The position numbers and the translations under genes were made by a program. A DNA stretch of 61,668 bases, the filler included. It is 5 parts of 5 records of this genome, joined end to end, with 100 filler letters (N's around TTAATTAATTAA, not from the genome) between each part and the next. Parts side by side here need not be neighbours in the genome. Positions count along the whole stretch, not along the records: positions 52,853 to 61,668 come from DRR723986_9816; 4 more parts are not named here. One strand, 5' to 3'. Below, piece after piece: positions 4,127 through 61,668 of the stretch. Below the pieces are notes generated by a model. That model worked only from the letters and a program-made list of their open reading frames with translations, was not told the origin of the DNA and did not search any database. The first letter of the stretch is position 1, and each line of letters opens with the position of its first letter.

Positions 4127-7100
4127 CCTCTGCATTCGCCGGCCAGTGCTGGCGATCATGATGACCGCTGCGCTCATGATGCTGGGCGTGGTCTCCATGG
4201 GTCGAATAAGCATCGATCTGTTCCCGAGCGTTGAAGTGCCCATTGTAACGGTTGAAACAATACTCGAAGGAGCCTCTCCCAGCACGGTAGAGACAGAAGT
4301 TACCGAGAGGCTTGAAGAAGAGCTAATCGCTATATCTGGCGTCGATACAATGCGCTCGATTAGCGGTGACGGTTTTTCACAGATAATCCTTGAATTCGAT
4401 ATGGAGGAAAATCCCAACCTGAAGGCCCAGGAGATACGGGACAAAATCAGTCAAACTCTGCCGCTTCTGCCTGACACAGTTAGTCAGCCTGTCGTCTCCA
4501 TACTTGATCCGGATTCTGAACCCATTGTCTCGGTGATTGTATCCGGCCCCTGGCCAGTGGGTGAACTCACAGCCTTCGCCAAAGATGTCGTCAAAGAGCG
4601 TTTGCAGAGAGTACCTGGCGTTGGCAGCGTGATTCTTGTCGGGGGCCGCGAGCGGGAAGTACGCATCTGGTTGAAAGCCCCACAAATGCGGGGTTACGGC
4701 GTAATTGCGGCCGATGTAATCAGCGCTATCCAACGTGAGCATGCTGACATCCCTGGCGGCCGCCTGGATTACCACAGCGGGTCCACGGAACTGACCATCA
4801 AAACCATGGGCGAAGTAACCAGCTTAAAAGAGTTGGGTGAAATCATTATTTCTCGCGATGATAAGGCGATGGTGCGCTTGATAGATGTTGCCGAAGTTGA
4901 GGATGGTCTGGAGGATGAACGCAGCTACGCGGAGCTAGATGGTAGAACAGGAGTAAGCCTCGAAATTCGCAAACAATCTGGAACCAATACCACCAGTATT
5001 GCCAAAGCAGTTAAGGCAGCGCTGACCAAACTTCAGACAGAAACACCAGCTGAAATCAACATTGTCACGGTAAGGGACAGTTCGCGATTTATCGGGTCCG
5101 CAGTGCGAGACGTGTCAAACGATATTTTGCTAGGCATCCTCCTGGTTGTCATTGTCACACTTTGCTTTTTACTCAGCGTACGCGCCACGCTAATTGTTGC
5201 AACCGCTATTCCAACGGCAATCATCGCTACTTTTTTCGCTTTCTACCTACTCGATTTTTCTATCAATATGGTATCGCTGATTGCCATATCACTGTGTGTC
5301 GGCCTGCTCGTAGACGATGCCATAGTTGTGCTGGAATCTATACACCGCGAAGTTGAAGCTGGGCTCGACCTCAATGAAGCTGCTTCAACGGGCACGCGAA
5401 AAGTTGCCACTGCCGTCATCGCATCCACCCTTTGTGTGATGGCGGTGTTCTTGCCGATTTCCTTTACCACAGGTCTGGTTGGTGTGTTTTTCTATCAATA
5501 CGGTGTCACCATTGCTGTGGCAGTAGCACTATCTCTGTTTGTTTCCGTTACCCTTACGCCTATGTTGAGCTCTCGTCTGCTCAAAAAAAGTTCCGGCCAT
5601 AGAGGAATGTTTGCGCTACTGGATAAGGGCTATGTACTTCTGGAAACAACCTACGTTAAGGGCGTTCGCTTCGCACTTCGCGCTCGCTGGCTTGTTCTGC
5701 TGTTGGCCGCTGCCACTGTCGGTATGGGTGTTTATAATGCGGGTCAGGTTCCCCTCTCATTTACGTCCGCAACTGATAGAAGCGAGTTTCTCGCCAAAGT
5801 CGAGCTTCCTCTGGGAACCGGTCTTACCCAGGCCAAGCGTGTTGCCACTCAAGTGAGTAAAACTGTCAGTGACCTGGAACATATTGAATTGGTGTTCACT
5901 GTTATTGGCTCCGGCGCTCAGGCCAAGGCAAACGAACTATCATTCTATTTTGGTCTGTCGCCGAAACAACAAAGGAGCAGTCATCAGTATGAAGTGATGG
6001 ATGACGTCCGCACAGCGCTCGCTTTGGCCATACCCGATGCCAAGCACATCTCTTTGACAGATGTGCCCTGGATATCCGGAGGAGGATTCTTTGGTGCCGA
6101 CATGGAGATGGCTTTAAGCGGCGATGATTTAGAACAACTTCGAACATACGCGGATACTATCACGAGCCAGATGGAAGAATCTGGCCTCTTCAGGGATATC
6201 AAGTCCAGCTATGAGCCAGGCAAGCCTGAATTGCAGGTTACGATAAACCGGCGCAGGGCCGCTGATTTGGGCATTTCGGTTCGAGATATCGCCGCTACTG
6301 TTGGAGCCACGATGGGTGGTGTAGATGTTACAAGTTACGAAGAGTTCGGTAATCGCTATGACGTGCGCCTGAGATATGCAGAAACGTACCGCGACGAGAT
6401 CGGAAAGTTTGACCTCATTCAATTACGCGCGGCAGACAACAGCTTAATAGATTTCCGTAACGTCGCAGAGGTAAGCGTAACCAGTGGCCCGGCACAAATC
6501 GATCACTACAATCGGGCTCGAAAGATCGGTATTTCTGCAAACGCTCCCGCTGGGATCGCGACAGGCGAGCTGATGAAAAAAATGGATGAGATTATTAGTG
6601 ATCTCGATATGGCTACAGGATACGAGAGTTCATATCTAGGCACTTCAGAGCAAATCAATGATATTGTCGAGGCAATATTTTTTGCACTAACAATGTCGAT
6701 GCTCAGTCTATACATGATTCTGGCTAGTCAATTCAACAGCTATACTCAACCAGTAGTGATCATGCTTACCGCTCCGCTGTCTTTTGTGGGCGCATTCAGC
6801 TTGCTCGCATGGACTAACTCCGAGCTTTCAGTCTTGACACAAATCGGTCTGGTCGCGCTGATGGGTCTGGTTATGAAAAACGGCATTCTTCTGGTGGACT
6901 ATGCCAATCAGGCCATAGAGCAAGGCCACAGCGCAGCGGAAGCTATGATCGAAGCGGCTCATTTACGCTTACGCCCAGTACTGATGACTGCGTTCTCTAC
7001 CATATTCGGTATGATCCCTATAGCGCTGGCCACGTCTGATGGCGCTGAGTTACGCACTTCAATGGGTATACTCGTAATAGGCGGACTAATTTCCTCAACC

Positions 7101-9015: not shown

Positions 9016-9115
9016 NNNNNNNNNNNNNNNNNNNNNNNNNNNNNNNNNNNNNNNNNNNNTTAATTAATTAANNNNNNNNNNNNNNNNNNNNNNNNNNNNN
9101 NNNNNNNNNNNNNNN
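9016..9115. other. Artificial contig linker
   Basis: N44-TTAATTAATTAA-N44, giving stops in all six frames. Confidence 0.98.
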
Positions 9116-14708: not shown

Positions 14709-14808
14709 NNNNNNNNNNNNNNNNNNNNNNNNNNNNNNNNNNNNNNNNNNNNTTAATTAATTAANNNNNNNNNNNNNNNNNNNNNNNNNNNNNNNNNNNN
14801 NNNNNNNN
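14709..14808. other. Artificial contig linker
   Basis: N44-TTAATTAATTAA-N44. Confidence 0.98.
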
Positions 14809-19652: not shown

Positions 19653-20005
19653 TGTTCGTCCATGATGGGCCGGTGAAGGTCTTTGTGGCGACGCGGCCTG
19701 TGGATTTCCGCAAGGGCATCGATGGCCTGGCACTGGCGGTGCAGGAGATGTTCGGGATGGACCCGTTCTGCGGGGCGGCCTTTGTGTTCCGGGCGAAACG
19801 GGCGGACAGGATCAAGCTCTTGATCTGGGATCAGACCGGCATGGTGCTGGTTCACAAACGGCTGGAAGGCGGCAAGTTCGTCTGGCCACAGGTGCGCGAT
19901 GGGGTCATGCGCATATCCAGCGCGCAGTTCGCGGCCCTTTTTGAGGGCGTGGATTGGCGGCTGGTGCGGCCAGAGCGGGTGCGGCGTCCGCTGGTGGCGG
20001 GGTGA
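19649..20005 (+). CDS. tnpB: IS66 accessory protein TnpB
   Basis: PVDFRKGIDGL...FVFRAKRADRIKLLIWD..G.VL..KRLE.GKF.WP. Confidence 0.95.
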   Translation: MMFVHDGPVKVFVATRPVDFRKGIDGLALAVQEMFGMDPFCGAAFVFRAKRADRIKLLIWDQTGMVLVHKRLEGGKFVWPQVRDGVMRISSAQFAALFEGVDWRLVRPERVRRPLVAG

Positions 20006-20072
20006 CGGAAAACTGTGCCGAAAGGCCTGTTTTTACTGGCCTGATAGGGCATCCTGTGATTCACTTTCGCCC

Positions 20073-21638
20073 ATGCGAACCACTGACCTTGCGCGCGAAA
20101 ACGCCCGGCTGAAAGCCCGCCTTGCCGAGGTGGAGGCGACGCTGGCCGAAACGCAGGAGGCCAACCGGCGGCTGCAAGATATTCTGAGTGCGGCGCAGCG
20201 CGAGAAATTTGGCAAGCGCTCCGAAAAGCTCTCGCCCGACCAGTTCAACCTGTTCCTGGAAGATGCCGAGTTCGCCCAGGGCGTTCTGGAGGCCGCGCAG
20301 GAAAAGGCCGAAGCGGCGATGCAGCGGGCGCGCGGGGAAACACCGCGCAAGCCCAAACGCAACCGTGGCCATCTGCCACCGCATCTGCCGCGCGTCGAAC
20401 GCGTAATCGAGCCTGGCAGCACGCTCTGCCCCTGTGGCTGTGGCGAGATGGCCAAGATCGGGGAAGACGTCTCCGAACGGCTGGACGTGATCCCCGCGCA
20501 GTTCCGGGTGCTGGTCACGCGTCGCCCCAAATACGCCTGCCGCCGCTGCGCGCAGGCCGTGGTGCAAGCGCATGCGCCTGAACATGTGGTGCCTGGCGGG
20601 CTGCCCACGGAACTCTTCATCGCCTGGATTATCGTCTCGAAGTTCGGTGACCACCTGCCGTTTTATCGGCAGGCCGAGATCTTCAAGCGGCAAGGGATCG
20701 ATCTGGACCGCGGCACACTCGGCAACTGGGTCGGGCGCGCCTGTTTCCACCTGATGCCCGTCATCAACCATATGCGTGCCCATCTGCGTGGCGCAGATCG
20801 CATCTTCGTGGATGAAACCCGCGCGCCGGTGCTGGACCCGGGCCTGAAACGCACCAAGAGTGGCTACTTCTGGGCGGTTGTGTCCGATGATCGCGGTCAT
20901 GGCGGGGGTGGCCCACCCATCGTGCTGTTCCATTATGCCCCCGGTCGGGGCAAGGTGCATCCGCTGAACTTTCTGGCCGGATACCGTGGTCGGTTCCTGC
21001 AATGCGATGCCTACCAGTCCTACAACGCGATGACCGAGATCACGCGCGAGAACGGCCCATGGCAACTGGTCTATTGCTGGACGCATGTGCGCCGCCGCTT
21101 CGTCAAGCGCTTCGAGAGCGATGGCTCACCCATCGCTGAAGAAATGCTGCGCCAGATCGCGCTGCTTTATCAAATCGAGAAGTCCGTCCGCGGCAAAGAG
21201 GCGCCTGCGCGCCTCGCCGCCCGGCGTGAACATGCGGCTCCGATCATCGCGGCGCTGAAACCCTGGCTGGAAGCCCAGCTCTCGCGGATTCCACAGAAAT
21301 CCCGGCTCGCCGAAGACATCCGCTACACGCTGGCCCACTGGCCCGGCCTGATCCGCTTCCTTGATGACGGCACGCTGGAACTCGACACCAACCCGGTCGA
21401 GAACCAGATCCGCCCGATCGCCCTGACAAGAAAGAATGCACTATTTGCAGGGAATGAAGTCGGCGCCGAGAACTGGGCCATGCTGGCCTCGCTGGTCGCC
21501 ACCTGCAAGATGTCCGACGTGAACCCCGTCGACTATCTCGCCACCACCCTGCGCGCCATCCTCGACGGCCACCCGCAAAGCGGCATCGAAGACCTCATGC
21601 CGTGGCGCTTCAACCAGCCGTCAAGCCTCGCCGCATAG
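20073..21638 (+). CDS. tnpC: IS66 DDE transposase TnpC
   Basis: FGKRSEK, Zn finger CPCGC..CRRC, KFGDHLPFYRQ, VDET, CWTHVRRRF, DTNPVENQIRP. Confidence 0.96.
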   Translation: MRTTDLARENARLKARLAEVEATLAETQEANRRLQDILSAAQREKFGKRSEKLSPDQFNLFLEDAEFAQGVLEAAQEKAEAAMQRARGETPRKPKRNRGHLPPHLPRVERVIEPGSTLCPCGCGEMAKIGEDVSERLDVIPAQFRVLVTRRPKYACRRCAQAVVQAHAPEHVVPGGLPTELFIAWIIVSKFGDHLPFYRQAEIFKRQGIDLDRGTLGNWVGRACFHLMPVINHMRAHLRGADRIFVDETRAPVLDPGLKRTKSGYFWAVVSDDRGHGGGGPPIVLFHYAPGRGKVHPLNFLAGYRGRFLQCDAYQSYNAMTEITRENGPWQLVYCWTHVRRRFVKRFESDGSPIAEEMLRQIALLYQIEKSVRGKEAPARLAARREHAAPIIAALKPWLEAQLSRIPQKSRLAEDIRYTLAHWPGLIRFLDDGTLELDTNPVENQIRPIALTRKNALFAGNEVGAENWAMLASLVATCKMSDVNPVDYLATTLRAILDGHPQSGIEDLMPWRFNQPSSLAA

Positions 21639-28566: not shown

Positions 28567-28666
28567 NNNNNNNNNNNNNNNNNNNNNNNNNNNNNNNNNN
28601 NNNNNNNNNNTTAATTAATTAANNNNNNNNNNNNNNNNNNNNNNNNNNNNNNNNNNNNNNNNNNNN
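28567..28666. other. Artificial contig linker
   Basis: N44-TTAATTAATTAA-N44. Confidence 0.98.
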
Positions 28667-46802: not shown

Positions 46803-48173
46803 CTAGGCTCCGATCCCTTCGATTTCGTAGCCCTCGCGGTATGGGCGAGCGAGCATTGAGTTTGCCAGCTCGTCACCGACAATCTGCTCAGCCTTGTCGT
46901 CCCATTTCACCTCGCGACCAAGTCGAGCGGAAATGCCTGCCAAGTGACAGATGTTGAGCATCTTCATATGAGAATGAACGTCGGAAATCGGCTCTTGCCC
47001 GGTGCGGACGCAGTGTAAGAAGTTTGCCCAGTGAGCCTTGCGTTCGTTCTGCTCCATAGGCAACCCCTTGTATACCTTCGCAATTGAATCATCGGGCAGT
47101 GGGTTGTCCTTGAGCGCCTCGACGGGAGCGCCGACTAGTCGCCGTCGATTGACGAAGATGCGACCTTTGTCTCCTTCGATCAAGATACCATTATCGGTAT
47201 CGTTCCGAATGTCCATTTCAACGCCATTGGCCCACTTGGCGGTGAACAAGAACTTGGTGGCCGTGTTGTAGCGGTCCGTCTGCTGCGGAATGCCATCCAC
47301 GAACTCAACGGGGTGTTCCGACGATCCACCCAATGAAACGGGGCCAGCGGTTGTTCCGTTCAGTTGCAGAGCCCATGTGGCGATGTCAACATGGTGGGCT
47401 CCCCAGTCAGTCAGCTTTCCGCCGGAGTACTCGTACCACCAACGGAATTCATAGTGGCAGTTTGTCTTGGGACGTCGTCCGCCAGGGAGAATTCTATAGT
47501 CCGTTGCTGGGGCAGGCCCAAGCCAAGCGTCCCAGTTCAAACTCTTGGGAGCTTCAGCGATTGGAATTTCCGGACTGGTGGGAGCACTGCCAATTGCTGC
47601 GGTGACCTTCTTGATTTTGCCCAAGCGTCCGTCGGCAACGATCGCCATCGCCTTTACAAACAAATTGAACGTACTTCGTTGCTGTGTTCCGACCTGAACG
47701 ATAGCCCCAGTGTCCTTTTGAACTTTGCGAATCAACTTCCCTTCGTCGATTGTCAGCGTTAACGGTTTCTCGCAGTAGACGTGCTTGCCAGCTAGCATCG
47801 CCTCAACAAGTGGCTTGGTGTGCCAGTGGTCGGGTGTCGCAATGTGAATCGCATCCAAGTCATCTCGGTCGATGACCTTTCGATAGTCTTCGTAGACGTC
47901 CGCTTTACCACCACTCATGCGATTATTGGAGGATTCAGCCCGTGCGGCATCAACGTCCGCAATAGCCACCACATCGACCCACTGTTTTGCGGAGTTCATA
48001 TTGCCGTTGGCCATGCCGCCAGCACCGATGACCCCCATTCGAAAGCGGTCCTTCTTAATCTCAGAGGCCAGAGTCTTTGGTTGTGAAGAGAAGTACGGGA
48101 CGAAGCCGGTCGCCGCAGCGCCCAATGCGGCGTGCTTGACGAATTGGCGGCGGTCGTTTCGTTTATTGCTCAT
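46803..48173 (-). CDS. Gfo/Idh/MocA oxidoreductase with Tat signal
   Basis: RRQFVK, GVIGAGG, ATPDHWH, YCEKP, QVGTQQRS, DWGAHHVD. Confidence 0.93.
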   Translation of the reverse strand: MSNKRNDRRQFVKHAALGAAATGFVPYFSSQPKTLASEIKKDRFRMGVIGAGGMANGNMNSAKQWVDVVAIADVDAARAESSNNRMSGGKADVYEDYRKVIDRDDLDAIHIATPDHWHTKPLVEAMLAGKHVYCEKPLTLTIDEGKLIRKVQKDTGAIVQVGTQQRSTFNLFVKAMAIVADGRLGKIKKVTAAIGSAPTSPEIPIAEAPKSLNWDAWLGPAPATDYRILPGGRRPKTNCHYEFRWWYEYSGGKLTDWGAHHVDIATWALQLNGTTAGPVSLGGSSEHPVEFVDGIPQQTDRYNTATKFLFTAKWANGVEMDIRNDTDNGILIEGDKGRIFVNRRRLVGAPVEALKDNPLPDDSIAKVYKGLPMEQNERKAHWANFLHCVRTGQEPISDVHSHMKMLNICHLAGISARLGREVKWDDKAEQIVGDELANSMLARPYREGYEIEGIGA

Positions 48174-48611
48174 CGTGGTTATCCTCGGTGCTGAGTGGTG
48201 GGAGTTTAAGGTGGGATGTTTTTGTGCGAGCGTCATTCTGCTCCGAGAAGCATTCATGACAAGCGGCATTCGAGCGGCGTCGAGCTATTGCAACTGTCCA
48301 TTCCGCAGGCACATTGTAATCGCTTAGCAGAGTAATAGCTTAGCAGACCGGACGTTGACATTGCAAAGTCGTCACCTGTACCACCCGAGCAAACCCTTAG
48401 TTGCTCGCGTTCCGATCGTAACCGAAAATTCAGAATCGTCTGCCGAAGCGCCCGCCTCACCCCCTTCAGAGCCAGCCAGTCAGCTACCACAGATCAGCCC
48501 TGCTTCGTTAAGTGTTGCGCGTTCGCTAGTGCTACGCGATCAGCAGCTCATATCGCCAACCATGCGGGGCCGGTGAATTCCAAGGTCTCCTTGAGTCGAC
48601 CATAGCTAAAG

Positions 48612-51902: not shown

Positions 51903-52094
51903 ACTACAACACAAGCCGCGGGGCACCCACGCCTGCTTGCATCCGCTCTATTCGATGCACTACAATGCTCTCATCCGGTCAGCGCGACAAGCGAGAACCA
52001 TCTTCGCCGCCCCCGGTTCGCGTTTGCCAACTGTAAGCGAATTTCACGCTGTTACTCGCTGAACTCCACGATGTAGTGAGCCCCTGATCCTCTC

Positions 52095-52724
52095 ATGGTA
52101 TTCAAACGGAAGATAGTGTTGTACTGCGTGATCGCAGCGATGCTAGGCGCAACTCTCGTAGTGGCATTCCACTATTTGGGAATCGGACATCATCCCAGAT
52201 ATCCAATGGCACGAGTCGCGTGGTGGCAATCTCCAGGGCGCATCGGTGCCACGATAGGACTGAACCCTCCGGAACCGATGACTGAATCGATGATTAGGGC
52301 GTCTGTGGATATCGACGAATGCGTTTTCGAAAACGACAGAAACCGAATGCTTTTAGGTTGGCGGTTTATGCGCAACAGCGGGGACACGGACATTTATCGC
52401 TTCCGCATCCAAGTTAATGATCAAGATCCCGTCACTCGGACAGTCGCCTTTGATGGGCAAAAAAACGTCGTCTTACAGGATCCCGAATCCGGGACTGCCC
52501 TCACGATTGAGCCTACCGATCTATTTCCAGATTTAGAAACTCCAGGCTATCTACTCTTGTGCAAAGCCACCGCGCTTTCGAGCAGTGCTAAGAAAGCATC
52601 AACGGCTTTCTCCAACTCGTTCACCCACCTCCACCGCACCGACCTGCTCTTTCAGAACACCACCTCCATCGCTTGCGGGGGTGTCAGTTGGTCGCCGACG
52701 CGTCGCGTTGGTCGTCCGCTTTGA
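52095..52724 (+). CDS. Hypothetical protein with N-terminal TM
   Basis: 209-aa ORF whose 3' end runs into REP-like repeats and may be degenerate. Confidence 0.45.
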   Translation: MVFKRKIVLYCVIAAMLGATLVVAFHYLGIGHHPRYPMARVAWWQSPGRIGATIGLNPPEPMTESMIRASVDIDECVFENDRNRMLLGWRFMRNSGDTDIYRFRIQVNDQDPVTRTVAFDGQKNVVLQDPESGTALTIEPTDLFPDLETPGYLLLCKATALSSSAKKASTAFSNSFTHLHRTDLLFQNTTSIACGGVSWSPTRRVGRPL

Positions 52725-52752
52725 ACAGTCACCTCCACCGCTTGCGGGGGAG
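52661..52752. repeat. REP-like palindromes CACCTCCAyCGCTTGCGGGGG x2 at contig end
   Basis: Copies at 52661 and 52730 (partial at about 52627); imperfect hairpin. Confidence 0.6.
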
Positions 52753-52852
52753 NNNNNNNNNNNNNNNNNNNNNNNNNNNNNNNNNNNNNNNNNNNNTTAA
52801 TTAATTAANNNNNNNNNNNNNNNNNNNNNNNNNNNNNNNNNNNNNNNNNNNN
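52753..52852. other. Artificial contig linker
   Basis: N44-TTAATTAATTAA-N44. Confidence 0.98.
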
Positions 52853-52962
52853 TGCTGATGACATCAGGCTTGCCTTTTGATTCTTTTGTTAGTTTGTGTG
52901 TCCCGGGATTGAATTCAATGAGCCTGGCCCAAAGTAATGCGAATATGATTCTATGGACTATT

Positions 52963-53640
52963 ATGCAAGACCTCACAACTCAATTCTTTGATGCTCTGTG
53001 TCTGCACGAGACACCTGCGGTTTTTCTGCCCGGAACTCCTGAGACAATGCTGCGAACTACGGTCGATGCTTCCGGCTGGTACGACTGGCAGCCTATTCCA
53101 GGTACCTTGCAGTCGGAAGACTACAAATCTCTGGAACGCGAATTCGGCGCTGTCTTACCTGACAGTTTCATCGAATGGCACATGCGCTACTTCTTTGCCG
53201 ACGCGGATTGCTGGCTGGTCCGCCTGCCAAATTCCCTGCCACAAGATCCTTTGGCAGCCGTGCGCAGCAACTTAAACATCGGCTACTCAGAAGATCTGAT
53301 CGCTGCAGGACTTATTCCTTTTGCGGATGACGGCAATGACGCCGGTTCACTTGTGTTTGACACGAGGGGACAAAACGGCCGGGCGGATTTTCCGATTTTA
53401 GAATATGATCATGAGTACCCTGACGTCCTGGACGGACTCTCCGGTGTGATTTTTTCATCGTTTAACAAACTGCTCGAATGCATGACGCATTTTTTGAAGG
53501 AAACACGCACACGCAAGAGGTTTGACGTCATACCTGCTTTCTTTGACATCGATCCGGCAGGCGCCGGCGCTGAAGGCCGTTACTACTGGGAGAATTGGAT
53601 CGATATGGAACGCATGAACTATGAAGAGTCTGGAGACTGA
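52963..53640 (+). CDS. SMI1/KNR4 (SUKH) family immunity-type protein
   Basis: LE.EFG.VLPDSF..W, LIPFADDG.D...VFD, I..YDHE, FSSF..LLE. The ORF is open from 52858. Confidence 0.8.
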   Translation: MQDLTTQFFDALCLHETPAVFLPGTPETMLRTTVDASGWYDWQPIPGTLQSEDYKSLEREFGAVLPDSFIEWHMRYFFADADCWLVRLPNSLPQDPLAAVRSNLNIGYSEDLIAAGLIPFADDGNDAGSLVFDTRGQNGRADFPILEYDHEYPDVLDGLSGVIFSSFNKLLECMTHFLKETRTRKRFDVIPAFFDIDPAGAGAEGRYYWENWIDMERMNYEESGD

Positions 53641-53870
53641 TGCCAGATACAAGTAATTGCAACTGATGCATCGACGCCAAACAAAAATATCATAAAGCAA
53701 GCCCGAAGTATAAGGGCGCTGCAATGCATGTCTACTGAAGTGTCTTGAAGATTGATTCCGCTTGAATGCCTTGAGTCATTAGATGCTAATCGCAGAGTAT
53801 TAATCGCCGAATCTTAAGTCCAGCTTGTTTAACAATTGGAAGAATCAGGTTCCTAAGTACTATTCTCAGT

Positions 53871-54524
53871 CTACTCCTGAAGTTTAAACACACCGGAGTC
53901 TAAAACATAGGTCCCAGGTGCAGGCTCATTAACACTGCCATATTCAATCGTGGAGAATTCGGACATTCCACCATAACATTCCAAGGGACCAATAGTGATC
54001 TGGCCTGCAGAATACGTGACTTCGCGTTTGCAGCCTTGATCGTCGTGATCAGAGGCAAACCAGCCAAAGTGCTCAAAGGTGGCAATCGACAGCAGGCGCG
54101 TTTTTTTGACCGGATCCCAAATCTTAATGGACTCATGCTCGGAGCCACCTCGACTGCCGTTTTGGACTCCACTTAACCTGAAAATCATTTCAGGTGTGCC
54201 GTCTTCAGTAATGTCTACAAAGTCGATAGATTTGAGGTCGATGTGCTGCATGTCATTCAAATCATAGTCGTCATCATACCAGGTGAACCAATGGATTCCA
54301 GCTTTGTAACCCACCATTCCGCGCCAGAGGGCAAAACCCTCGGTCGTGCTTATGGCCAAGAGATCACCGCAAGGGTGAGTGTTAAACAAGTGAAACAGAC
54401 TTTCACTGCGTTTAACATCCCAGGATTCAACCTGGACTGTCGGTAAAACGGTGAGAGAATCCTGACTGAAGGCCGCTGCCGAACAAAGTACGCTTAAACA
54501 AATCAAAACTAGAGCCCGCGTCAT
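53871..54524 (-). CDS. Hypothetical secreted protein
   Basis: AGGAG RBS before ATG 54524, Sec signal MTRALVLICLSVLCSAAAFS, Dx[DN]xDG-like DITEDGTPE. Confidence 0.7.
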   Translation of the reverse strand: MTRALVLICLSVLCSAAAFSQDSLTVLPTVQVESWDVKRSESLFHLFNTHPCGDLLAISTTEGFALWRGMVGYKAGIHWFTWYDDDYDLNDMQHIDLKSIDFVDITEDGTPEMIFRLSGVQNGSRGGSEHESIKIWDPVKKTRLLSIATFEHFGWFASDHDDQGCKREVTYSAGQITIGPLECYGGMSEFSTIEYGSVNEPAPGTYVLDSGVFKLQE

Positions 54525-54977
54525 ATCTGCGCTCCTGGAAAAGAGACTGGAATATGTGAATCTTTCTCGGTTTCGGTTGCGGCAGACCTGAATCCCAAAG
54601 ACTGAAGGTTGACGGCAATATAGTCGTATTACCTCACATATCAATGCTTACATGCCTGGGCTGACTACAATTAGCTACTTTGAGTCGTGATTGTGGCAGT
54701 ATCGCTGTCTCACCCTCAAGCTACTATTTATGCGGTCTCAGGCGATAATTTGCACCAAATTCAGTGCCAAACAGGCGATAGGGGAAGCTTTAGAATGTGC
54801 AATCATTTGGATTGCCGGGGGCGGGCAGCGCAGCTACTTTGCGAAAGTGATTCGGGGCAAATCAAATGTTAATACAACTCCCGAACGCAACATGTTAAAA
54901 CAAAACATGCAATACACTTCCGGGCTGACGGAGCTGTATCGAAATTTATCCATTCTATTTATCTGAAGGTTTTCCAT

Positions 54978-55580
54978 ATGAGTCCATCTCAAGACTGCTG
55001 CTGGATTGCTGTGGCAACAACAGCCTGTACGATGCCCGCTACTGGGCCTGCGAGCGGAGCACAAAATGTTTCAGGACAGACCAGAACAAATCAAACAGCT
55101 GGTACTGCTTCGGCTGCCGGCTGCCCAGTGATTATGTTAACAACGGCCTGTAGTTTTAGTGCGCAGGAAGTCGCTACGTCGCAGGCCAATGCCTCGGCGG
55201 CCGGCTGCCCGGTGATTGCTTTGACAACCGCCTGCAGTTTTAGTGCGCAGGAGATAGCCGCGAAACAGGCGGATGCCAATGCTGCCGGCTGTCCAGTGAT
55301 CATGTTAACAACCGCCTGTAGTTTCAGTGCGCAAGACGTCGCGCAGAAACAAGCCGATGCCGCAACATCAGGCTGTCCGGTGATTGCTTTGACGACCGCC
55401 TGTAGTTTCAGTGCGCAGGAGATTGCCAAGTCTCAGGCCGATGCCGCGACATCGGGCTGTCCGGTAATTGCTTTGACAACCGCCTGCAGCTTCAGTGCTC
55501 AAGAGATAGCCGCGAAACAGGCGGATGCAAGTGCTGCCGGCTGTCCGGTAATTATGTTAACAACTGCCTGCTCCTTCTAG
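54978..55580 (+). CDS. Multi-core RiPP (lanthipeptide-like) precursor: 6x GCPVI(M/A)LTTACSF plus one variant core
   Basis: 28-aa (84-nt) period, cores starting at 55119, 55203, 55287, 55371, 55455 and 55539. Core DNA differs mainly at synonymous positions. GAAGG RBS; directly upstream of kinase, lyase and cyclase genes. Confidence 0.9.
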   Translation: MSPSQDCCWIAVATTACTMPATGPASGAQNVSGQTRTNQTAGTASAAGCPVIMLTTACSFSAQEVATSQANASAAGCPVIALTTACSFSAQEIAAKQADANAAGCPVIMLTTACSFSAQDVAQKQADAATSGCPVIALTTACSFSAQEIAKSQADAATSGCPVIALTTACSFSAQEIAAKQADASAAGCPVIMLTTACSF

Positions 55581-55650
55581 TGGCGCCGCCGCATGGCAGT
55601 CCTGTAGGCTAATGACGTCAATTATGGACTGTTAAGACCCGAGCATTCAG

Positions 55651-55700
55651 GGAGGAGGAGAGCTTCTCCATACTTTTCTGTGCTTCTCCTTCTCCTTTTT
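55651..55700 (+). terminator. Hairpin plus U-tract between precursor and enzyme genes (terminator/attenuator)
   Basis: GGAGGAGGAGAGC (55651-55663) pairs with GCTTCTCCTTCTCC (55682-55695), followed by TTTTT. Confidence 0.55.
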
Positions 55701-55725
55701 CATCATTTACCTGCCCGGACAAATC

Positions 55726-56850
55726 ATGTACACTGTTGATAACATCCACTCCTTGCTCCTGGAGCAAAAACTGATTTCCATGCGCTCGTTTGTCAATGGT
55801 GATTATGAAGCAACGAGTGTCAACCGCCGCAACCAGAACCTGCGCATCACGACGCTCGCCGAAGGTAATTACCTGGTTAAACAAGTGCAGGATAAAGAGG
55901 CCGTGAATGCAGTTACTGTGCGGCGCGAGATTGATTTCTACCGCACACTCAAAACAACTGTGCCGGAATTGGCCGCTTTGTGTCCGCAGCATATCTATTC
56001 TGACAGAGATAGAATCATTCTGATGATTGAGCTGTTTGAAAAAGCGATGCCCCTCTGGAAATACTACAGAATTAAGACAATAGAGCATATGCCGCTGGCG
56101 ACGGTTGAAGCCATAGCAGTACTTCTGGCGACGGTGCACCGGAGGCTCGCAGAGCCCAAAGTCCTTGGACATCCCAACTTTGAGTTTCTGTCGCAAGACC
56201 TGCCCTTTGCGTTTGGCATGACACAACCAGATCCCGCGATATTAACATTTATCAGGCAGGGAAGCCTGCAATTCCTGCAAAATCTGCAGGCAAACGCGGA
56301 TATCCTCGAAATTCTGGCTGCCGTTCGTGAGCTGTGGCAATTGAATGCGGTGATTCACGGTGATATTAAACTCGACAACTTTTTGGTCCTTGGCGAAGAT
56401 AAGTCAATTCGCAATGCGAGCTCAGATGTTAGACTTATCGACTGGGAGATGCTGCAGTTTGGTGATTTTGCCTGGGATGTTGCCGGGGTGTTTCAGGATA
56501 AAATATTCTGGTGGGCACAATCAATGCCGCAGCGTGATACACCTGAAGAAATGGCGCAGGCCGCCCAGTTTCCGATAAATCGCCTGGCGCCGTCCATGCA
56601 GAAGTTTTGGGAGATTTACTGCCGCACTTCTGAGTTCTCGGCTGAGTATGAGCGGCAACTGCTCCACAAGGTTGTGCGTTATGCCGGCCTGCGCACGCTG
56701 CAGACCGCCTACGAAGTCTGTTCCAGATTTGATGAAATTCCGCCCGTAGGCGCAATTCTGCTCGGTATCGGCAAAAGTATTCTGCGCAAACCCGAAGAAG
56801 CTGCAATTCACCTGTTTGGATTTAAGCCGGAGGTGTTAGATGTTAACTGA
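55726..56850 (+). CDS. APH-family phosphotransferase, LanK-like Ser/Thr kinase of a split dehydratase
   Basis: RRNQNL.I....YLVKQ N-lobe, catalytic HGDIKLDN, LIDWE, GD.AWD.AG. Confidence 0.88.
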   Translation: MYTVDNIHSLLLEQKLISMRSFVNGDYEATSVNRRNQNLRITTLAEGNYLVKQVQDKEAVNAVTVRREIDFYRTLKTTVPELAALCPQHIYSDRDRIILMIELFEKAMPLWKYYRIKTIEHMPLATVEAIAVLLATVHRRLAEPKVLGHPNFEFLSQDLPFAFGMTQPDPAILTFIRQGSLQFLQNLQANADILEILAAVRELWQLNAVIHGDIKLDNFLVLGEDKSIRNASSDVRLIDWEMLQFGDFAWDVAGVFQDKIFWWAQSMPQRDTPEEMAQAAQFPINRLAPSMQKFWEIYCRTSEFSAEYERQLLHKVVRYAGLRTLQTAYEVCSRFDEIPPVGAILLGIGKSILRKPEEAAIHLFGFKPEVLDVN

Positions 56851-57913
56851 AAAAGTACACAGCGACATCCTGAAAGTAATTGATGCGGTCGAGTTTATCT
56901 CAGAAAGTGAGTATGCGCTGAACGGTTTGCGCCGCGACATCAGCAATATGCACATCATTGACCCGAGCGGGCATGTGAATGTTAGTCCCGTTGTTAAACA
57001 GCCTGCGCACTACGCCGAGAATTTTTGCAGAGTGCTGACGGCCGACATCTATCAGCAACTGTACAGCCCCGCCGAGGACGCCAATTCACAGATCCCCGAC
57101 ACCGAAATTATTGGCTTCCGCGCTAAACTCTCGCATGCCAATCAAGGCAGCGGTACCTGGGAGGCGGGCTGGAAGATCATTGGCGTAGAAGCAGCCGCAG
57201 GCGAGCCGGACGGGAAGATCATCGTCTCAAATGGCATACTGCAATTCTGGGCGAATGCCGTTGATGTTAGCACAGGCGGCAATACATTTGTTGCCGGGGC
57301 TGAATGTCAGGTTCGAGTCGGCAAAGAAGTCCAGAGTCTAAATCCACACTTCTTTATGGTCTATGGCAATCTTAACAAAGATGAAGTTGACGGTTTTGCC
57401 GGCAAAATGCTGCGGTTCTACTGGAACCTGACTGCGGCGGGCGCAATCAAGTATATTGAACTTGTCACAGACATGTTTAATCATGCCGGAATCCTTTTTA
57501 AGACAAAAGTACTTTCGGATTCGCAGGCTTATAAACGTACAGATGGCGGCGTGCTGTACACCGACAGCAGTCAGCTGCGCCAGGCCGTGCCCTTGTTAAT
57601 GCGTATCCATGCTGAGTTGCAGCCGTTCCTGGGAGCAAATGTACCGCTGTTCACCCGTAAAATGGCGCATGGCCTGGCTTTTGCCGAAGATCCGGCGACC
57701 GGCGAGAGTTTTGGAATATCGCGCGCAAGTATCATTGCACGTGGCATGCATGCCTCTTTTAGCAATGGCCGTACGCGTCCGCAAGAAATGCTGCAATCAG
57801 TACATAAACACCTCGCCAGGGCCGGCATTGAACCGCAACATCCATACTCGTATAAAACTAACCGTGCCATGTACGAGCGCATCCTGAACAATTCTGCAAC
57901 TGTTAACCATTGA
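56840..57913 (+). CDS. HopA1-like protein, LanY-like phospho-Ser/Thr lyase
   Basis: RFYWNL, FKTKVL, Y.RTDGGVLY, PLFTRK...GLAFAEDP..GESFG..R, recognised as HopA1-family motifs; overlaps the kinase by 11 nt. Confidence 0.82.
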   Translation: MLTEKVHSDILKVIDAVEFISESEYALNGLRRDISNMHIIDPSGHVNVSPVVKQPAHYAENFCRVLTADIYQQLYSPAEDANSQIPDTEIIGFRAKLSHANQGSGTWEAGWKIIGVEAAAGEPDGKIIVSNGILQFWANAVDVSTGGNTFVAGAECQVRVGKEVQSLNPHFFMVYGNLNKDEVDGFAGKMLRFYWNLTAAGAIKYIELVTDMFNHAGILFKTKVLSDSQAYKRTDGGVLYTDSSQLRQAVPLLMRIHAELQPFLGANVPLFTRKMAHGLAFAEDPATGESFGISRASIIARGMHASFSNGRTRPQEMLQSVHKHLARAGIEPQHPYSYKTNRAMYERILNNSATVNH

Positions 57914-59247
57914 ACGGCAGCAATACCATGACAGATACACTTATCAGACCCGAACGTATGACTGAGAATCAAGACTTTCTGAGCGCCGCCTGCAACATTG
58001 GTGATCATCTGCTGGAAACAGCACTTTGGGATGCCGAACATGAGACCTGTAATTGGTTGGCACGGCGCGATATTGAGGATGCTGAAGTCGCACCCTACGC
58101 CGATCAAACTGCGGCGCTGAGCCCCGAAATATACAGTGGTTCGGGTGGTCTTGCATTATTCCTGGCGGAGTTATTCGGTCTAACACAAAATCCAGATTAC
58201 CGCGCGTCGGCTGTGGCGGCCTGGTTGCGATCTGTGCGTTACATGCGGACGAATGAATTCCCGGATTCGCCGCTTTCATTCTATGCCGGTAAGTTGGGTC
58301 TGCTCTATGTTGGCTACCGTATTTTGGATATGGGCCAGAATGCAGACATTAATATCGCGGCGGAACTGGACTGGTTAAGCGCTGAGCTGGAAGATGCTCT
58401 GCAAAAAGAACATTCGCTGGATGTGATTGGCGGAAATGCCGGCGCAATTCCAGCTCTGCTGTATCTGGCTGAAAAACACGACCTGGAGTTTTGTGGGCAG
58501 CTTGCCGTGGACTGCGCACAGGAAATTGTCAACAAGGCAGACTGGCAGGGGGACATGTGTTTGTGGACCTCCGAAAAGATCCACGGCATCGAGTTAAATT
58601 TGCCGCCGCTGACTGGATATTCACATGGTGCGGCGGGATTAGGGGTGGCGCTGCTTGAAGTTTATGCGGCCACGCAGAACCCAAGCTTTCTGCAACATGC
58701 GCGTGGAGCTTTTGCATTTGAAGCGGCCTATTTTAACGATGCAGAGGGCAACTGGATTGACACGCGCCATCCGCACAAGATTGAGAATGAAAAAAATATT
58801 ACGGGTACCTGCCGCAATGCCTGGTGTCACGGCGCTCCCGGAATTGCCCTGGCGCATATGCGCGCCGCCTCGCTCGATACGGAGCGCCAGGACTTTCACC
58901 GGCGAATGGCCAAAACTGCGATTGAAACCACAAAACGCGACATTGCTGTCAAGCTCAAAACTCCACGCAAAGATGCTACGCTCTGCCATGGGATTTTGGG
59001 CTCCGTTGAGATCGTGTTAACATATGGAAAATACCTGCAGGATGAGGCGGCGATTGAATTTGCGCGTTCGGTCACTTCGGCATATCTCGCAAAATTTAAC
59101 TCACCGCTGGAGATGGCCTCCGGTCTAAATACGGGTAGCTACAGCCCTTCACTGATGATTGGCCTTGCGGGAATTGGTATGCATTGTTTGCGACTGATTG
59201 ACGACTCCGTCCGCTCGGTGTTGATTACTTTGCCGGATCACGTTTAG
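57910..59247 (+). CDS. lanC: Stand-alone lanthionine synthetase C-like cyclase with intact Zn ligands
   Basis: YSGSGG.ALFL, DVIGGNAG, GYSHGAAG (catalytic His), AWCHGAPG and LCHG (Cys/Cys/His Zn triad), LMIGLAGIG. Start is TTG 57910 or ATG 57928. Confidence 0.92.
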   Translation: MNGSNTMTDTLIRPERMTENQDFLSAACNIGDHLLETALWDAEHETCNWLARRDIEDAEVAPYADQTAALSPEIYSGSGGLALFLAELFGLTQNPDYRASAVAAWLRSVRYMRTNEFPDSPLSFYAGKLGLLYVGYRILDMGQNADINIAAELDWLSAELEDALQKEHSLDVIGGNAGAIPALLYLAEKHDLEFCGQLAVDCAQEIVNKADWQGDMCLWTSEKIHGIELNLPPLTGYSHGAAGLGVALLEVYAATQNPSFLQHARGAFAFEAAYFNDAEGNWIDTRHPHKIENEKNITGTCRNAWCHGAPGIALAHMRAASLDTERQDFHRRMAKTAIETTKRDIAVKLKTPRKDATLCHGILGSVEIVLTYGKYLQDEAAIEFARSVTSAYLAKFNSPLEMASGLNTGSYSPSLMIGLAGIGMHCLRLIDDSVRSVLITLPDHV

Positions 59248-59516
59248 GATCAGGCGCCAAGGTTTGCAAAGCCCTCTATTGAATTCCGGAAAATAGTGTA
59301 TTTTGGCGCCGGCCCCGGTTTGCACCACGGGAAGCTGCCAATTAAAATACTTCACAGGACGGGTCAAAGTTCTTGTCGGGTAGCCGCTGGAGAGGAACTC
59401 TGCGCTGGAAATACGCTCTCCACTCCTTGCGAGCCACGATGATGGACAAATGATTAAGCGTCTGCACCGAAGTATTTGTCCATACAAACTCAAAACACTA
59501 TTCTTCCGGAGCGATT

Positions 59517-60557
59517 ATGTGTACACGTGTATTTAACAACCATGAAAAGACATTGCTGACAACAGGCAGAAACATGGACTGGCCCGAACAAATGGATACC
59601 AGTCTGTACTATTTTTATAGCGGACTTAACAAAACCGGTTTGCCGGCCGGAGATACTTCGGGCACTACACCCTTAAAGTGGACATCCAAATACGCTAGTG
59701 TTGTAGCCATGATTTCCAGTGCCGGTGCGGCCGATGGTTTAAACAGTGAGGGGCTGGCAGCCAACGTCCTCTATTTGGCCTGTAGCACCTACGCCGATGC
59801 CGCACAGCGCAAAGGCAAAACCGGTTTGAGTGTGCTGCGTTGGTTGCAGTACGTTGTTGACAGTTTTGCAAATGTTAATGAAGTAGTCGAGGAATTTAAG
59901 GACAACACTGAACTGGTATTGGTCGGCGCCAAAGTTCCGGGAGACTCCGGCGGTGCGGAAGCCCAGCTCCACCTTTCGATTTCCGACCGGCATGGTGATT
60001 CCGCAATCATTGAAATATTTGACGGCAAATATGTTGTGCACAGCGCCCCCAGATATCGCGTGATGACGAATGACCCGCGCTTCGGTAAACAACTTGAGAT
60101 TGACGAATATTGGCGCTGGCAATATGAAATGAAAGACAATGAAAACCCCACGTTCACGCTGCCCGGAACCGTGTATTCTGCCGATCGATTTGCCAGAGCC
60201 AGGTACTACGTGGAAAACATGGTTAAAGTTGAGGATGAACACAGTGCGGTTGCGCAAATGTTCTCTATCGTTCGCAACGCGGCCGTACCACTTGGTTACG
60301 AGGTTCCCAACCGATGCACGGGCCAACCGCAGGCTATCGCGCAAACGCTGTGGTCAACAGTTTCGGTGCATGATAATAGGACTTACTATTTCGGCGATTC
60401 TTCGACTCCCAACATTTTTTGGGTCGAGCTGCTTAAGCCCTTTTCCACGTCGGCCACAAGCTTGCAACTCGAAACCAAAGTTGATGGGCACTACGTTTTT
60501 TATGCAGGTTGTGTTAACAAGGCTTTTTCCGCAAGTACGGATCCATTTGCGGCATAA
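59517..60557 (+). CDS. Ntn-hydrolase, choloylglycine hydrolase / penicillin V acylase (linear amide C-N hydrolase) family
   Basis: N-terminal nucleophile M-C-T-R, GRNMDW, DGLNSEGL, MTNDP, S.DRF.RA; no signal peptide. Confidence 0.92.
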   Translation: MCTRVFNNHEKTLLTTGRNMDWPEQMDTSLYYFYSGLNKTGLPAGDTSGTTPLKWTSKYASVVAMISSAGAADGLNSEGLAANVLYLACSTYADAAQRKGKTGLSVLRWLQYVVDSFANVNEVVEEFKDNTELVLVGAKVPGDSGGAEAQLHLSISDRHGDSAIIEIFDGKYVVHSAPRYRVMTNDPRFGKQLEIDEYWRWQYEMKDNENPTFTLPGTVYSADRFARARYYVENMVKVEDEHSAVAQMFSIVRNAAVPLGYEVPNRCTGQPQAIAQTLWSTVSVHDNRTYYFGDSSTPNIFWVELLKPFSTSATSLQLETKVDGHYVFYAGCVNKAFSASTDPFAA

Positions 60558-60717
60558 ACTCATGCGCAAAGGCAAGTGTGTTTTTGTCTTTGCGTATGTT
60601 TTTTTGAGCGCTGTAGCTGCGCTGGGCGCTTTTTTAAAGGCATTCTTGTTTTGCACTGCTGCAAGGGTGTGAATTCGCGCAGCAGTGTTAAAACCTGGAT
60701 GTCAGATTGTTTTAGAT

Positions 60718-60768
60718 CCAGAATTAGTCCCACAGTTAATCCCACAGTTAATCCCAGAATTAATCCCA
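60718..60768. repeat. 12-nt tandem repeat CCA(GAA/CAG)TTA(A/G)TC x4
   Basis: Units at 60718, 60730, 60742 and 60754. Confidence 0.85.
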
Positions 60769-61074
60769 GGGGCCGTTTTTGTTAATGTCTTGGCATGGAT
60801 TGAATCGTATGGTTTGCGTTCATGCCTCGAAAGCGAACATGAAACCATGTTTTTGACCACTATTCTATTTGATTGACTTGGTTAAAGAGTACTCATACCC
60901 AATATGTACTGAATAAATTTCGGTGCATCAATCGCCAACAACGCTGAAAATGCCAAAGCAATCAGTAAAATTCTGAGTACGTCCAGTCCGAGTGATTCCA
61001 ACCAATTCCTTTGTTTTGCGTGGACTTGGCGTAGTAGCTTTTCCAACGTTGGTATTGTCGATAGTGCTTCCAGC

Positions 61075-61215
61075 CTTTGCATCACTGCCATTGGCAAAGC
61101 ATCTCTAACCATGAAGCGATCATTGCGTTGGCTCATGGCCCACCCGACGAAGTGTTTACTACATCCATCCATCTCGCAGGTCCGGTTTAGCCAGCCCTCC
61201 GATGTTGTGAGGCGA
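61075..61215 (-). pseudogene. IS3 family transposase (integrase core) fragment
   Basis: TTSEGWLNRTCEMDGCSKHFVGWAMSQRND..MVRDAL.MA matches the T.EGWLYLA..D..SR.IVGW.M...LV..AL..A pattern. Confidence 0.8.
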
Positions 61216-61442
61216 ACTTGGGAAGGTCATAGTCAGAATGGTTGTTCGAAATGTATAAAAACCGACCGGATCTTGTATCAGAGGATCCGGTCAGAGTGTT
61301 TCGCAAAATTCAAGACATATTGCTTCAAAGGCTTACGTTTACAGGCTCGTATAAAACCAAACCCGAGGCGGAAATTGTCGGAACAAAGCTATTTGTATTC
61401 AGCGAGTGACAAACAATCATGTTAAATCACACGAAATACTGG

Positions 61443-61667
61443 TTAAGGGTCTATGTAGAGCGGGCAGGATGTGCTTGGAGTATAATACTCGCTGTCAGCT
61501 GCTACTGAATCACCGTCAAGATCATAAGCGAAGTTGATAGTCATCACATAGTTTTGACCGTGGGCCAGACCTGCTTCATTGCAACGAATTCTAGGTCTCC
61601 CAGAAAGATCAGTCTGCGATGATCTCAGTTGAGCGACCAAAACACTATTTTGGTAAAATTTGTATTC
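61443..61667 (-). CDS. C-terminal end of an unknown CDS entering from the window edge
   Basis: The frame is open from the window end (EYKFYQNSVLVAQ...) to the stop at 61443. Confidence 0.5.
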   Translation of the reverse strand, partial: EYKFYQNSVLVAQLRSSQTDLSGRPRIRCNEAGLAHGQNYVMTINFAYDLDGDSVAADSEYYTPSTSCPLYIDP

Positions 61668-61668
61668 A

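Follow-up and report, generated by a model that had tools for sequence, protein, structure and literature searches.

A candidate leaderless multi-core lanthipeptide precursor encoded ahead of class Vb-type modification enzymes

A repeat-encoding gene ahead of three predicted enzymes

The window analysed here is a stretch of DNA of 61,668 nucleotides, filler included, joined from five parts of one genome; the part of interest, positions 52,853–61,668, comes from the record DRR723986_9816. It contains an open reading frame (ORF) that encodes a series of closely similar 13-residue segments, referred to below as cores, followed by genes for a putative kinase, a putative lyase and a putative cyclase. 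The ORF is considered here as a candidate precursor gene (LanA) for a lanthipeptide, one of the peptides that are made by ribosomes and modified after translation (RiPPs). The features of the locus are collected in Table 1.

Table 1. Candidate precursor gene, its cores and the features downstream, in window coordinates (aa, amino acids; nt, nucleotides)
Feature	Position	Strand	Details
Candidate precursor gene, 200 aa	54978..55580	+	MSPSQD, canonical core, 28-aa linker, six derived cores with five 15-aa spacers, stop
Seventh core, canonical type, CCWIAVATTACTM, aa 7-19	54996..55034	+	Pattern C-C-W-x4-T-T-x-C-[ST]-x
Six derived cores GCPVI(M/A)LTTACSF and five 15-aa spacers	55119..55577	+	39 nt per core
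GC-rich hairpin then TTTTT, attenuator/terminator-like	55650..55700	+	Consensus match; between precursor and kinase genes
Putative LanK-type APH kinase, 374 aa	55726..56850	+	PF01636 E 3.9e-11; HGD 211-213, N218, D239
Putative LanY-type HopA1-family phospho-Ser/Thr lyase, 357 aa	56840..57913	+	PF17914 E 7.9e-39
Putative stand-alone LanC cyclase, 445 aa	57910..59247	+	PF05147 E 1.6e-52; H240, C306, C359, H360
Putative choloylglycine-hydrolase-family N-terminal nucleophile (Ntn) amidase, 346 aa, starts MC	59517..60557	+	PF02275 E 8.5e-43
Terminator-like hairpin (16 pairs) and T run, after hydrolase gene	60561..60608	+	Consensus match only

A first-pass annotation of this DNA had described six cores of the GCPVI(M/A)LTTACSF type at an exact 28-residue period, the last ending at the stop codon, and translation of the ORF bears this out. 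The GCPVI motif starts at residues 48, 76, 104, 132, 160 and 188 of the precursor (nucleotides 55119, 55203, 55287, 55371, 55455 and 55539), giving a period of exactly 28 residues or 84 nucleotides, and a TAG codon at 55578–55580 directly abuts the sixth of these cores. Residue 6, which is either methionine or alanine, runs M,A,M,A,A,M along the array, and all five spacers follow the pattern SAQ(E/D)(V/I)AxxQA(N/D)Axx(A/S), both as annotated. Tandem Repeats Finder reported the array at a period of 84 (5.5 copies, score 412) and at a period of 168 (1.9 copies, score 455); the latter signal fits growth of the array through duplication of a pair consisting of one Met-type and one Ala-type core. 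The count of six was exact for this derived core, but a further core had been overlooked. The sequence CCWIAVATTACTM shares the C-x6-TT-x-C frame of the six derived cores but starts with Cys-Cys-Trp. In all, the window precursor holds seven cores, one canonical and six derived.

Codons vary synonymously among the derived cores while the residues stay fixed, as had also been claimed. Among the 13 codon columns of the core, 10 vary synonymously (the swaps include TGC/TGT, CCA/CCG and ACA/ACG/ACC/ACT), two are invariant and column 6 alone changes the residue. Pooled Nei-Gojobori comparison of the derived cores (15 pairs) gave a proportion of non-synonymous differences (pN) of 0.070, a proportion of synonymous differences (pS) of 0.596 and a ratio of non-synonymous to synonymous rates (dN/dS) of 0.06; for the spacers (10 pairs) dN/dS was 0.16. 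Owing to their common history the pairs lack independence; the values are a description of the pattern and do not amount to a test.

The window precursor has no leader peptide, the first core beginning six residues past the initiator methionine. The ATG at 54978 is backed by homology, as the relatives described below start with a methionine and 4–8 further residues, followed by (D)CCW; the 35 codons that separate it from the upstream in-frame stop include no ATG, GTG or TTG. The N-terminus is not signal peptide-like, and the ORF has no match among the Pfam or NCBIfam families. Beside the operon, the scan of ORFs showed no further small one rich in Cys and Ser/Thr. An antisense ORF at 55091–55429 was rejected as a gene and attributed to the repeat, of which it is a by-product.

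The precursor and the three enzyme genes lie on one strand, with an overlap of 11 nucleotides between kinase and lyase genes and of 4 nucleotides between lyase and LanC genes, an arrangement read as translational coupling. The predicted kinase scored 43.6 bits against PF01636 (cut-off 23.2), a family also matched by its orthologues (10/10), and has the HGDxxxxN and DWE motifs. It matched the NCBIfam model of the class V kinase LxmK (NF038156) over its full length (8.6e-25), at 87 bits, below the equivalog cut-off of 315; by this measure it is a relative of LxmK and no equivalog. One PDB entry, 9dk1, was matched twice, by the kinase (9dk1_A, ‘Kinase’, 4e-4) and by the lyase (9dk1_B, ‘Lyase’, 3e-5).

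In the family alignment of the lyase, R192, K223 and R233 are conserved in 20/20 sequences and Y240 in 17/20. The active-site residues of the class Va lyase CaoY are R187, K219, R229 and Y236; the K219A substitution abolished lyase activity, and mutants of R187 and R229 were made as well (PMC9486802). The window lyase keeps this R/K/R/Y set at near-equal spacing (31/10/7, compared with 32/10/7 in CaoY), a correspondence that was mapped by spacing and not by alignment with CaoY.

The predicted cyclase carries the motifs SHG (238–240), WCHG (305–308) and LCHG (358–361), which align with those of NisC and of the LicM2 cyclase domain. From NisC, we take the SHG, WCxG and CHG motifs to supply the zinc ligands of a Cys-Cys-His site along with the catalytic His. 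Among the NCBIfam models the protein comes closest to LanM-type cyclase domains: it matched the cyclase part of the LanM model TIGR03897 at 5.6e-72, and the cyclase part alone of the LanL model NF038150 at 1.2e-26 (93 bits, cut-off 650). Neither LanD nor LanX turned up when nine ORFs from 49.7 to 60.6 kb were scanned.

For the 145-nucleotide spacer between precursor and kinase genes the folding energy is −44.3 kcal/mol and the z-score only −1.75. At the other end of the cassette, 270 nucleotides separate the LanC gene from that of the putative Ntn hydrolase and no terminator-like site lies between them; the hydrolase gene is possibly co-transcribed with the cassette.

Relatives of the enzymes and of the precursor

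A search of a 5.8-billion-protein set with the HopA1 protein gave 20 relatives at E ≤ 1e-5, the best with 45% identity. With a HopA1 alignment, 79 loci were retrieved from representative genomes, and their neighbouring genes were located by tblastn with the window proteins. A kinase gene lies just upstream on the same strand in 75 of the 79 loci and a LanC gene just downstream in 68; both are present in 65. A quick maximum-likelihood tree of LanC was made from 49 of 64 rows, those containing X or falling outside 350–560 residues having been removed. The window LanC lies inside a clade of 13 rows that has 100% support in the Shimodaira–Hasegawa-like approximate likelihood-ratio test (SH-aLRT) and whose members come from Bacteroidota (Microbacter, Lacinutrix, Tenacibaculum, Flavobacteriales, Chitinophagaceae), Rhizobium and Burkholderiales.

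Directly before the kinase gene, all 11 clade members with upstream DNA have an ORF of 105–143 residues with four CCWIVLATTGCST cores and no leader. The twelfth clade member, L009, was not counted for the precursor; its sequence starts within the kinase gene. Ten of the four-core precursors were aligned, L007 being omitted as nearly identical to L006. All 28 invariant columns fall in the cores, and the spacers vary in both length and sequence. The last core is flush with the stop codon in 8 of the 10 relatives and ends 1–2 residues before it in two. An in-frame stop lies at most four codons upstream of the start in six of the ten, so that these precursors cannot carry a leader. Cys2, Thr8, Thr9 and Cys11 are present in every core compiled from the relatives (83/83), and 76 of the 83 conform to the pattern C-C-W-x4-T-T-x-C-[ST]-x. 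The flanks keep only one or two acidic residues ahead of the core and, frequently, a D behind it. When ORFs of at least 90 residues from ten loci and the window were clustered, the conserved neighbours were the precursor, kinase, lyase and LanC alone.

In three Bacteroidota loci, L003 (5134–6652), L004 and L008, genes for a histidine kinase (HisKA_3) and a response regulator of the LuxR type lie upstream of the cassette; the pair is a possible regulator of the cluster. A further group of loci comes from Sphingomonas and Allosphingosinicella (L033, L048, L051, L054, L055, L057, L058, L060, L061 and L068), which the LanC tree places together in one clade with 99% support. Their precursors are 300–520 residues long and end about 100–250 nucleotides before the kinase gene (e.g. 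L051:7812–8726). After a short N-terminal region (…QNYLGG.VQQR…) they carry more than 10 cores of the alternating types DCKDVMWTAGCTF and DCGNVLTTLACTL, with the last core ending at the stop codon.

Upstream proteins of 330–580 residues were seen in L012, L017, L019, L021–L027, L050 and L072 (e.g. L022:7445–8671), which come from Acidobacteriota, Gemmatimonadota, Dormiibacterota and others. A conserved N-terminal domain of about 120 residues (…DP..PP....L.GY.G.S.EEGH.RLY.D…FLEG.I) is followed in these proteins by a repetitive tail rich in Cys, Pro and Thr; they have no Pfam or NCBIfam match. Two more types precede the kinase, lyase and LanC genes (K-Y-C) in Bacteroidota, namely a 446-residue protein with about 13 repeats of GPTGWYTC.QATHLLGCTT.TSTP (L047:7193–8533) and a 266-residue protein of PTVCPTVAPMCPP-type repeats (L029:23–823). 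In the Planctomycetota loci L014–L016, L020 and L069, crude scans gave no clear precursor.

A profile of the ten four-core ORFs was also searched against 1.84 billion representative proteins (E ≤ 1e-3). It gave 14 matches, of which 12 have CCW cores (1–4 each); P0033 and P0034 were dropped as unrelated repeat proteins. One match, P0022, has three canonical cores and a last core with a single Cys, SCISIMSTTACTL, that resembles the derived core of the window. Another, P0023, has an N-terminal domain of about 150 residues followed by four CCW cores, and so joins a domain of the type seen in the long upstream proteins to cores of the canonical type. Several CCW-core proteins have an N-terminal region of 30–50 residues with a common [FY]L-x-G-x-[ILV] motif (P0024, P0026, P0027, P0029–P0032; L082, L084, L088, L090). 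The same motif closes the 120-residue domain of the long upstream proteins, and it may be a leader recognition element that was lost in the window's clade.

Scanning metagenome contigs with the precursor alignment gave 11 loci. A kinase gene, with lyase and LanC genes as far as the contig reaches, lies directly downstream in six of them; three end less than 250 nucleotides past the precursor and cannot be judged. A search of the ESM Atlas gave no usable match. The number of CCW-type cores per precursor is 2–5 in the relatives, compared with more than 10 cores in the Sphingomonas loci and seven in the window.

The favoured interpretation and its rivals

In class V lanthipeptide biosynthesis, an APH kinase (LanK) and a HopA1 lyase (LanY) dehydrate Ser/Thr residues; class Vb adds a dedicated LanC, which forms overlapping (methyl)lanthionine ((Me)Lan) rings. 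The only characterised class Vb member, mSmoA from Streptomyces, carries a C-terminal lanthionine (Lan) besides two (Me)Lan rings that overlap (PMC9486802 for class V; PMC11186320 and PMC12291118 for both). Going by sequence and by these published descriptions, the window trio matches class Vb in each enzyme feature that was examined. As in the Smo system (SmoK/SmoY/SmoC; Pei et al. 2022, J Am Chem Soc, doi 10.1021/jacs.2c06808, as described in PMC11186320, PMC12291118 and PMC12328550), the predicted APH kinase, HopA1 lyase and zinc LanC are separate proteins, there is no LanD or LanX, and the Cys and Thr/Ser residues of the precursor are placed for overlapping rings. The window differs from the Smo system in having seven cores in one ORF and no leader; its host is probably a member of the Planctomycetota, and the nearest related loci are in Bacteroidota and Pseudomonadota and not in actinobacteria.

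The class Va systems (cacaoidin, CaoK/CaoY; lexapeptide, LxmK/LxmY/LxmX) share with the window the logic of an APH kinase in complex with a HopA1 lyase, but as described they have LanD, LanX and aminovinyl-methylcysteine (AviMeCys), no LanC, and a single core behind a leader bound by LanK (PMC9486802). Class IV LanL and class III LanKC proteins likewise combine lyase, kinase and cyclase activities, but in one three-domain polypeptide with an OspF-type lyase, whereas the window has three genes and a HopA1-type lyase. The three ORFs of the window have their own starts and stops. A split class IV system and a class I system were both rejected, as the lyase is of the wrong type and there is no LanB. 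The first-pass annotation had regarded the HopA1 and LanC neighbours as maturation enzymes; that part is supported, but it had recognised neither class Vb, nor the APH kinase, nor the absence of a leader.

In its layout of near-identical cores, spacers and varying copy number, the window precursor resembles those of cyanobactins, microviridins (PMC5934393), orbitides and dikaritins. These RiPPs contain heterocycles or ester/amide bonds, compared with the thioether rings proposed here, and have a leader, dedicated proteases that recognise conserved sequences, or both, compared with no leader and no conserved protease. More distant relatives of the cassette itself also differ from the window, in having leaders of 30–50 residues or an N-terminal domain of about 150 residues.

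Our favoured interpretation, which we hold to be probable but well short of certain, is that the ORF at 54978–55580 is a leaderless multi-core LanA of a class Vb-type pathway and the substrate of the three enzymes encoded downstream. Modification by the predicted kinase, lyase and LanC is well supported, by synteny and by intact catalytic residues. Release of single cores is suggested by the cores being flush at both ends, by conservation of the cores alone and by the varying copy number. Gene order, catalytic residues, synteny across the family and conservation specific to the cores are seen in the sequences; phosphorylation with elimination, the ring positions, release and any activity are inferred.

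In this pathway, the kinase would phosphorylate Thr8, Thr9 and possibly Ser12 of each 13-residue core, and the lyase, probably in complex with it, would eliminate the phosphate to give dehydrobutyrine (Dhb) and dehydroalanine. The zinc LanC would then direct addition of the core cysteines. A derived core (G-C2-P-V-I-M/A-L-T8-T9-A-C11-S12-F) would thereby acquire two thioether rings, with one hydroxy or dehydro residue left over; judged by spacing, the rings are most simply Cys2-Dhb9 (i,i+7) and Dhb8-Cys11 (i,i+3). With its three Cys, the canonical core (C1-C2-W-...-T8-T9-A-C11-T-M) could give rise to three rings, and its adjacent Cys-Cys and Thr-Thr pairs, at i,i+7, would suit two overlapping staples. 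The derived core would be a form that has lost the first Cys, with Gly in its place. A protease would then excise the cores, yielding one canonical, three Met-type and three Ala-type peptides per translation, a defined mixture of three different ring peptides. As the precursor has no N-terminal leader, recognition must reside in the cores or the spacers, and recognition of this kind would account for the near-identity of CCWIVLATTGCST from phylum to phylum.

Several results weigh against this interpretation. A precursor without a leader is unlike all the class V substrates characterised, in which the leader is bound by LanK (PMC9486802). Clustering of neighbours in the ten relatives and the window revealed no conserved protease or transporter, so that gene content lends no support to the release of single cores; the earlier idea of a multi-core lanthipeptide precursor thus stands as regards modification and lacks this support as regards release. 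The Ntn hydrolase gene is absent from the related loci (0/79 genome loci, 0/11 metagenome loci) and was on this count rejected as a family-wide maturation enzyme. The window precursor had no relatives of 110–350 or of 30–109 residues in the 5.8-billion-protein set. The derived core GCPVIxLTTACSF gave no exact back-translated match in the metagenome contigs (0 hits), and as it was found nowhere else it is without independent replication.

The association of precursor with enzymes is also imperfect. In L084, a doubtful case, 845 nucleotides of downstream sequence contain no kinase match. In L090, the one clear exception, a two-core CCW ORF with an acidic GDETGD-repeat tail (5908–6300) has no kinase, lyase or LanC gene within 5.9 kb upstream or 2.8 kb downstream; its neighbours are an aminotransferase, an aldehyde oxidoreductase and a phage-type integrase. 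Precursor–enzyme co-occurrence is strong, but not absolute.

The lack of a conserved protease bears most directly on a rival in which the precursor is modified but never cut, giving a ‘lanthi-protein’ of about 200 residues with seven thioether-stapled hydrophobic modules on Ala/Gln-rich linkers. Beyond the missing protease in the four-gene cassette, this rival gains from the constraint on the window spacers (dN/dS 0.16) and from the distant K-Y-C loci L017, L019, L022 and L047, where the upstream proteins are Cys/Pro/Thr-rich repeat proteins of 300–580 residues without an obvious core-and-spacer layout and look more like modified proteins. Against it, the cores end exactly at the stop codon and begin 5–8 residues past the methionine, the spacers of the orthologues drift freely in length and sequence while the cores are nearly identical, and the number of cores varies from 2 to 7; flush cores, drifting spacers and varying core number are traits of multi-core RiPP precursors. 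Housekeeping proteases mature many lanthipeptides. We regard an uncut product as unlikely and keep it under consideration because the absence of a conserved protease argues against release.

That the six copies are an assembly artefact, the true gene having fewer or more cores, is very improbable. Tandem repeats are easily mis-assembled, and the metagenome contigs gave no other assembly of the locus. However, the 84-nucleotide units are only 67–90% identical in pairwise comparison (units 2 and 5 are the closest, at 90%), which makes collapse or expansion of the copy number unlikely. Differing at 10–33% of bases, the units can each be told apart at read length; the reading frame runs unbroken through the whole array and closes with a core and then the stop; and independently assembled relatives carry 2–5 cores, or more than 10 in the Sphingomonas loci. 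Hardly credible is the proposal that the ORF, which has no Pfam or NCBIfam match and a two-core counterpart without enzymes in L090, encodes an ordinary repetitive or disulfide-bonded small protein that neighbours the enzymes by chance while the real substrate lies elsewhere, since the same ORF type precedes the kinase gene in 11/11 of the nearest loci, spread over three phyla, with no other neighbour conserved, the residues that never vary are the Cys and Thr-Thr required by lanthionine chemistry, the N-terminus does not resemble a signal peptide, and beside the operon no other small ORF rich in Cys and Ser/Thr was seen.

Host, origin and place among lanthipeptides

The host is probably a member of the Planctomycetota. 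The Gfo/Idh/MocA-type gene at 46803–48269 has its best match in a Planctomycetota genome, at 52% identity and with many paralogues, and weak matches in Bacteroidota, Rhizobium and Burkholderiaceae genomes. The cassette has a G+C content of 51.3%, compared with 55.0% in the first 52 kb of the window; over 52000–60557, which includes the cassette, the value is 0.47–0.52, compared with 0.54–0.56 in the preceding 14 kb, a fall that weakly fits an acquired island. The lyases of the Planctomycetota loci in the set are only 32–35% identical to that of the window, and the nearest enzymes are in other phyla. Together, the G+C contrast and the affinity of the enzymes to those of other phyla suggest that the cassette was acquired horizontally. 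After acquisition, most canonical cores would have been replaced by the amplified derived core. The window would then represent a family in the course of innovation, in which the ancestral three-Cys core has been kept and a two-Cys core, one staple poorer, has expanded to six copies of two allelic forms, Met and Ala.

Two ORFs lie between the last junction and the precursor gene, one at 52858–53640, whose SMI1/KNR4 (SUKH-1) match is weak (3.4e-4) and falls short of the Pfam cut-off, and a divergently transcribed one of 257 residues at 53871–54644 without a family match; in the relatives, neither is a conserved neighbour of the cassette. Pairs of 44-N runs with 12 bases between them occupy 9016–9115, 14709–14808, 28567–28666 and 52753–52852, the last about 2 kb upstream of the precursor gene. 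An IS66-family transposase (PF03050, 2e-97) is encoded at 19899–21638, where the local G+C content is 0.60–0.63.

Among RiPP classes, lanthipeptides form the largest. The abstract of Pei et al. 2022 reportedly mentions more than 240 class V clusters that contain LanC. The enzyme set seen here is already known; as far as the literature searched shows, the novelty is a lanthipeptide precursor with several cores. No description of such a precursor was found in that literature, which was judged by titles, abstract openings and selected passages and did not extend to the full paper of Pei et al. 2022 with its supplement or to the multicore review. A paper of July 2026 states that multi-core precursors are as yet unreported for lanthipeptides, in agreement with the first-pass remark that they would be unusual for this class. 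According to PMC12328550, class V lanthipeptides have so far come from actinobacteria only. The survey of class V precursors in PMC9486802 kept only ORFs of fewer than 110 residues, a filter that would miss the 200-residue precursor of the window.

We consider the evidence evenly balanced on a wider proposal, that these loci make up the first multi-core lanthipeptide family, which is also leaderless, that its cassette of precursor, kinase, lyase and LanC genes has moved among Bacteroidota, Pseudomonadota and Planctomycetota, and that the enzymes recognise core or spacer. If the cores are modified and released, the family would fill the multi-core gap in lanthipeptides. It would also be a natural case of leader-independent recognition by LanK, LanY and LanC, useful for engineering tandem or library substrates, and would extend class V chemistry from actinobacteria to Gram-negative phyla. 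The near-identity of the canonical core across phyla raises the question of a conserved target or function.

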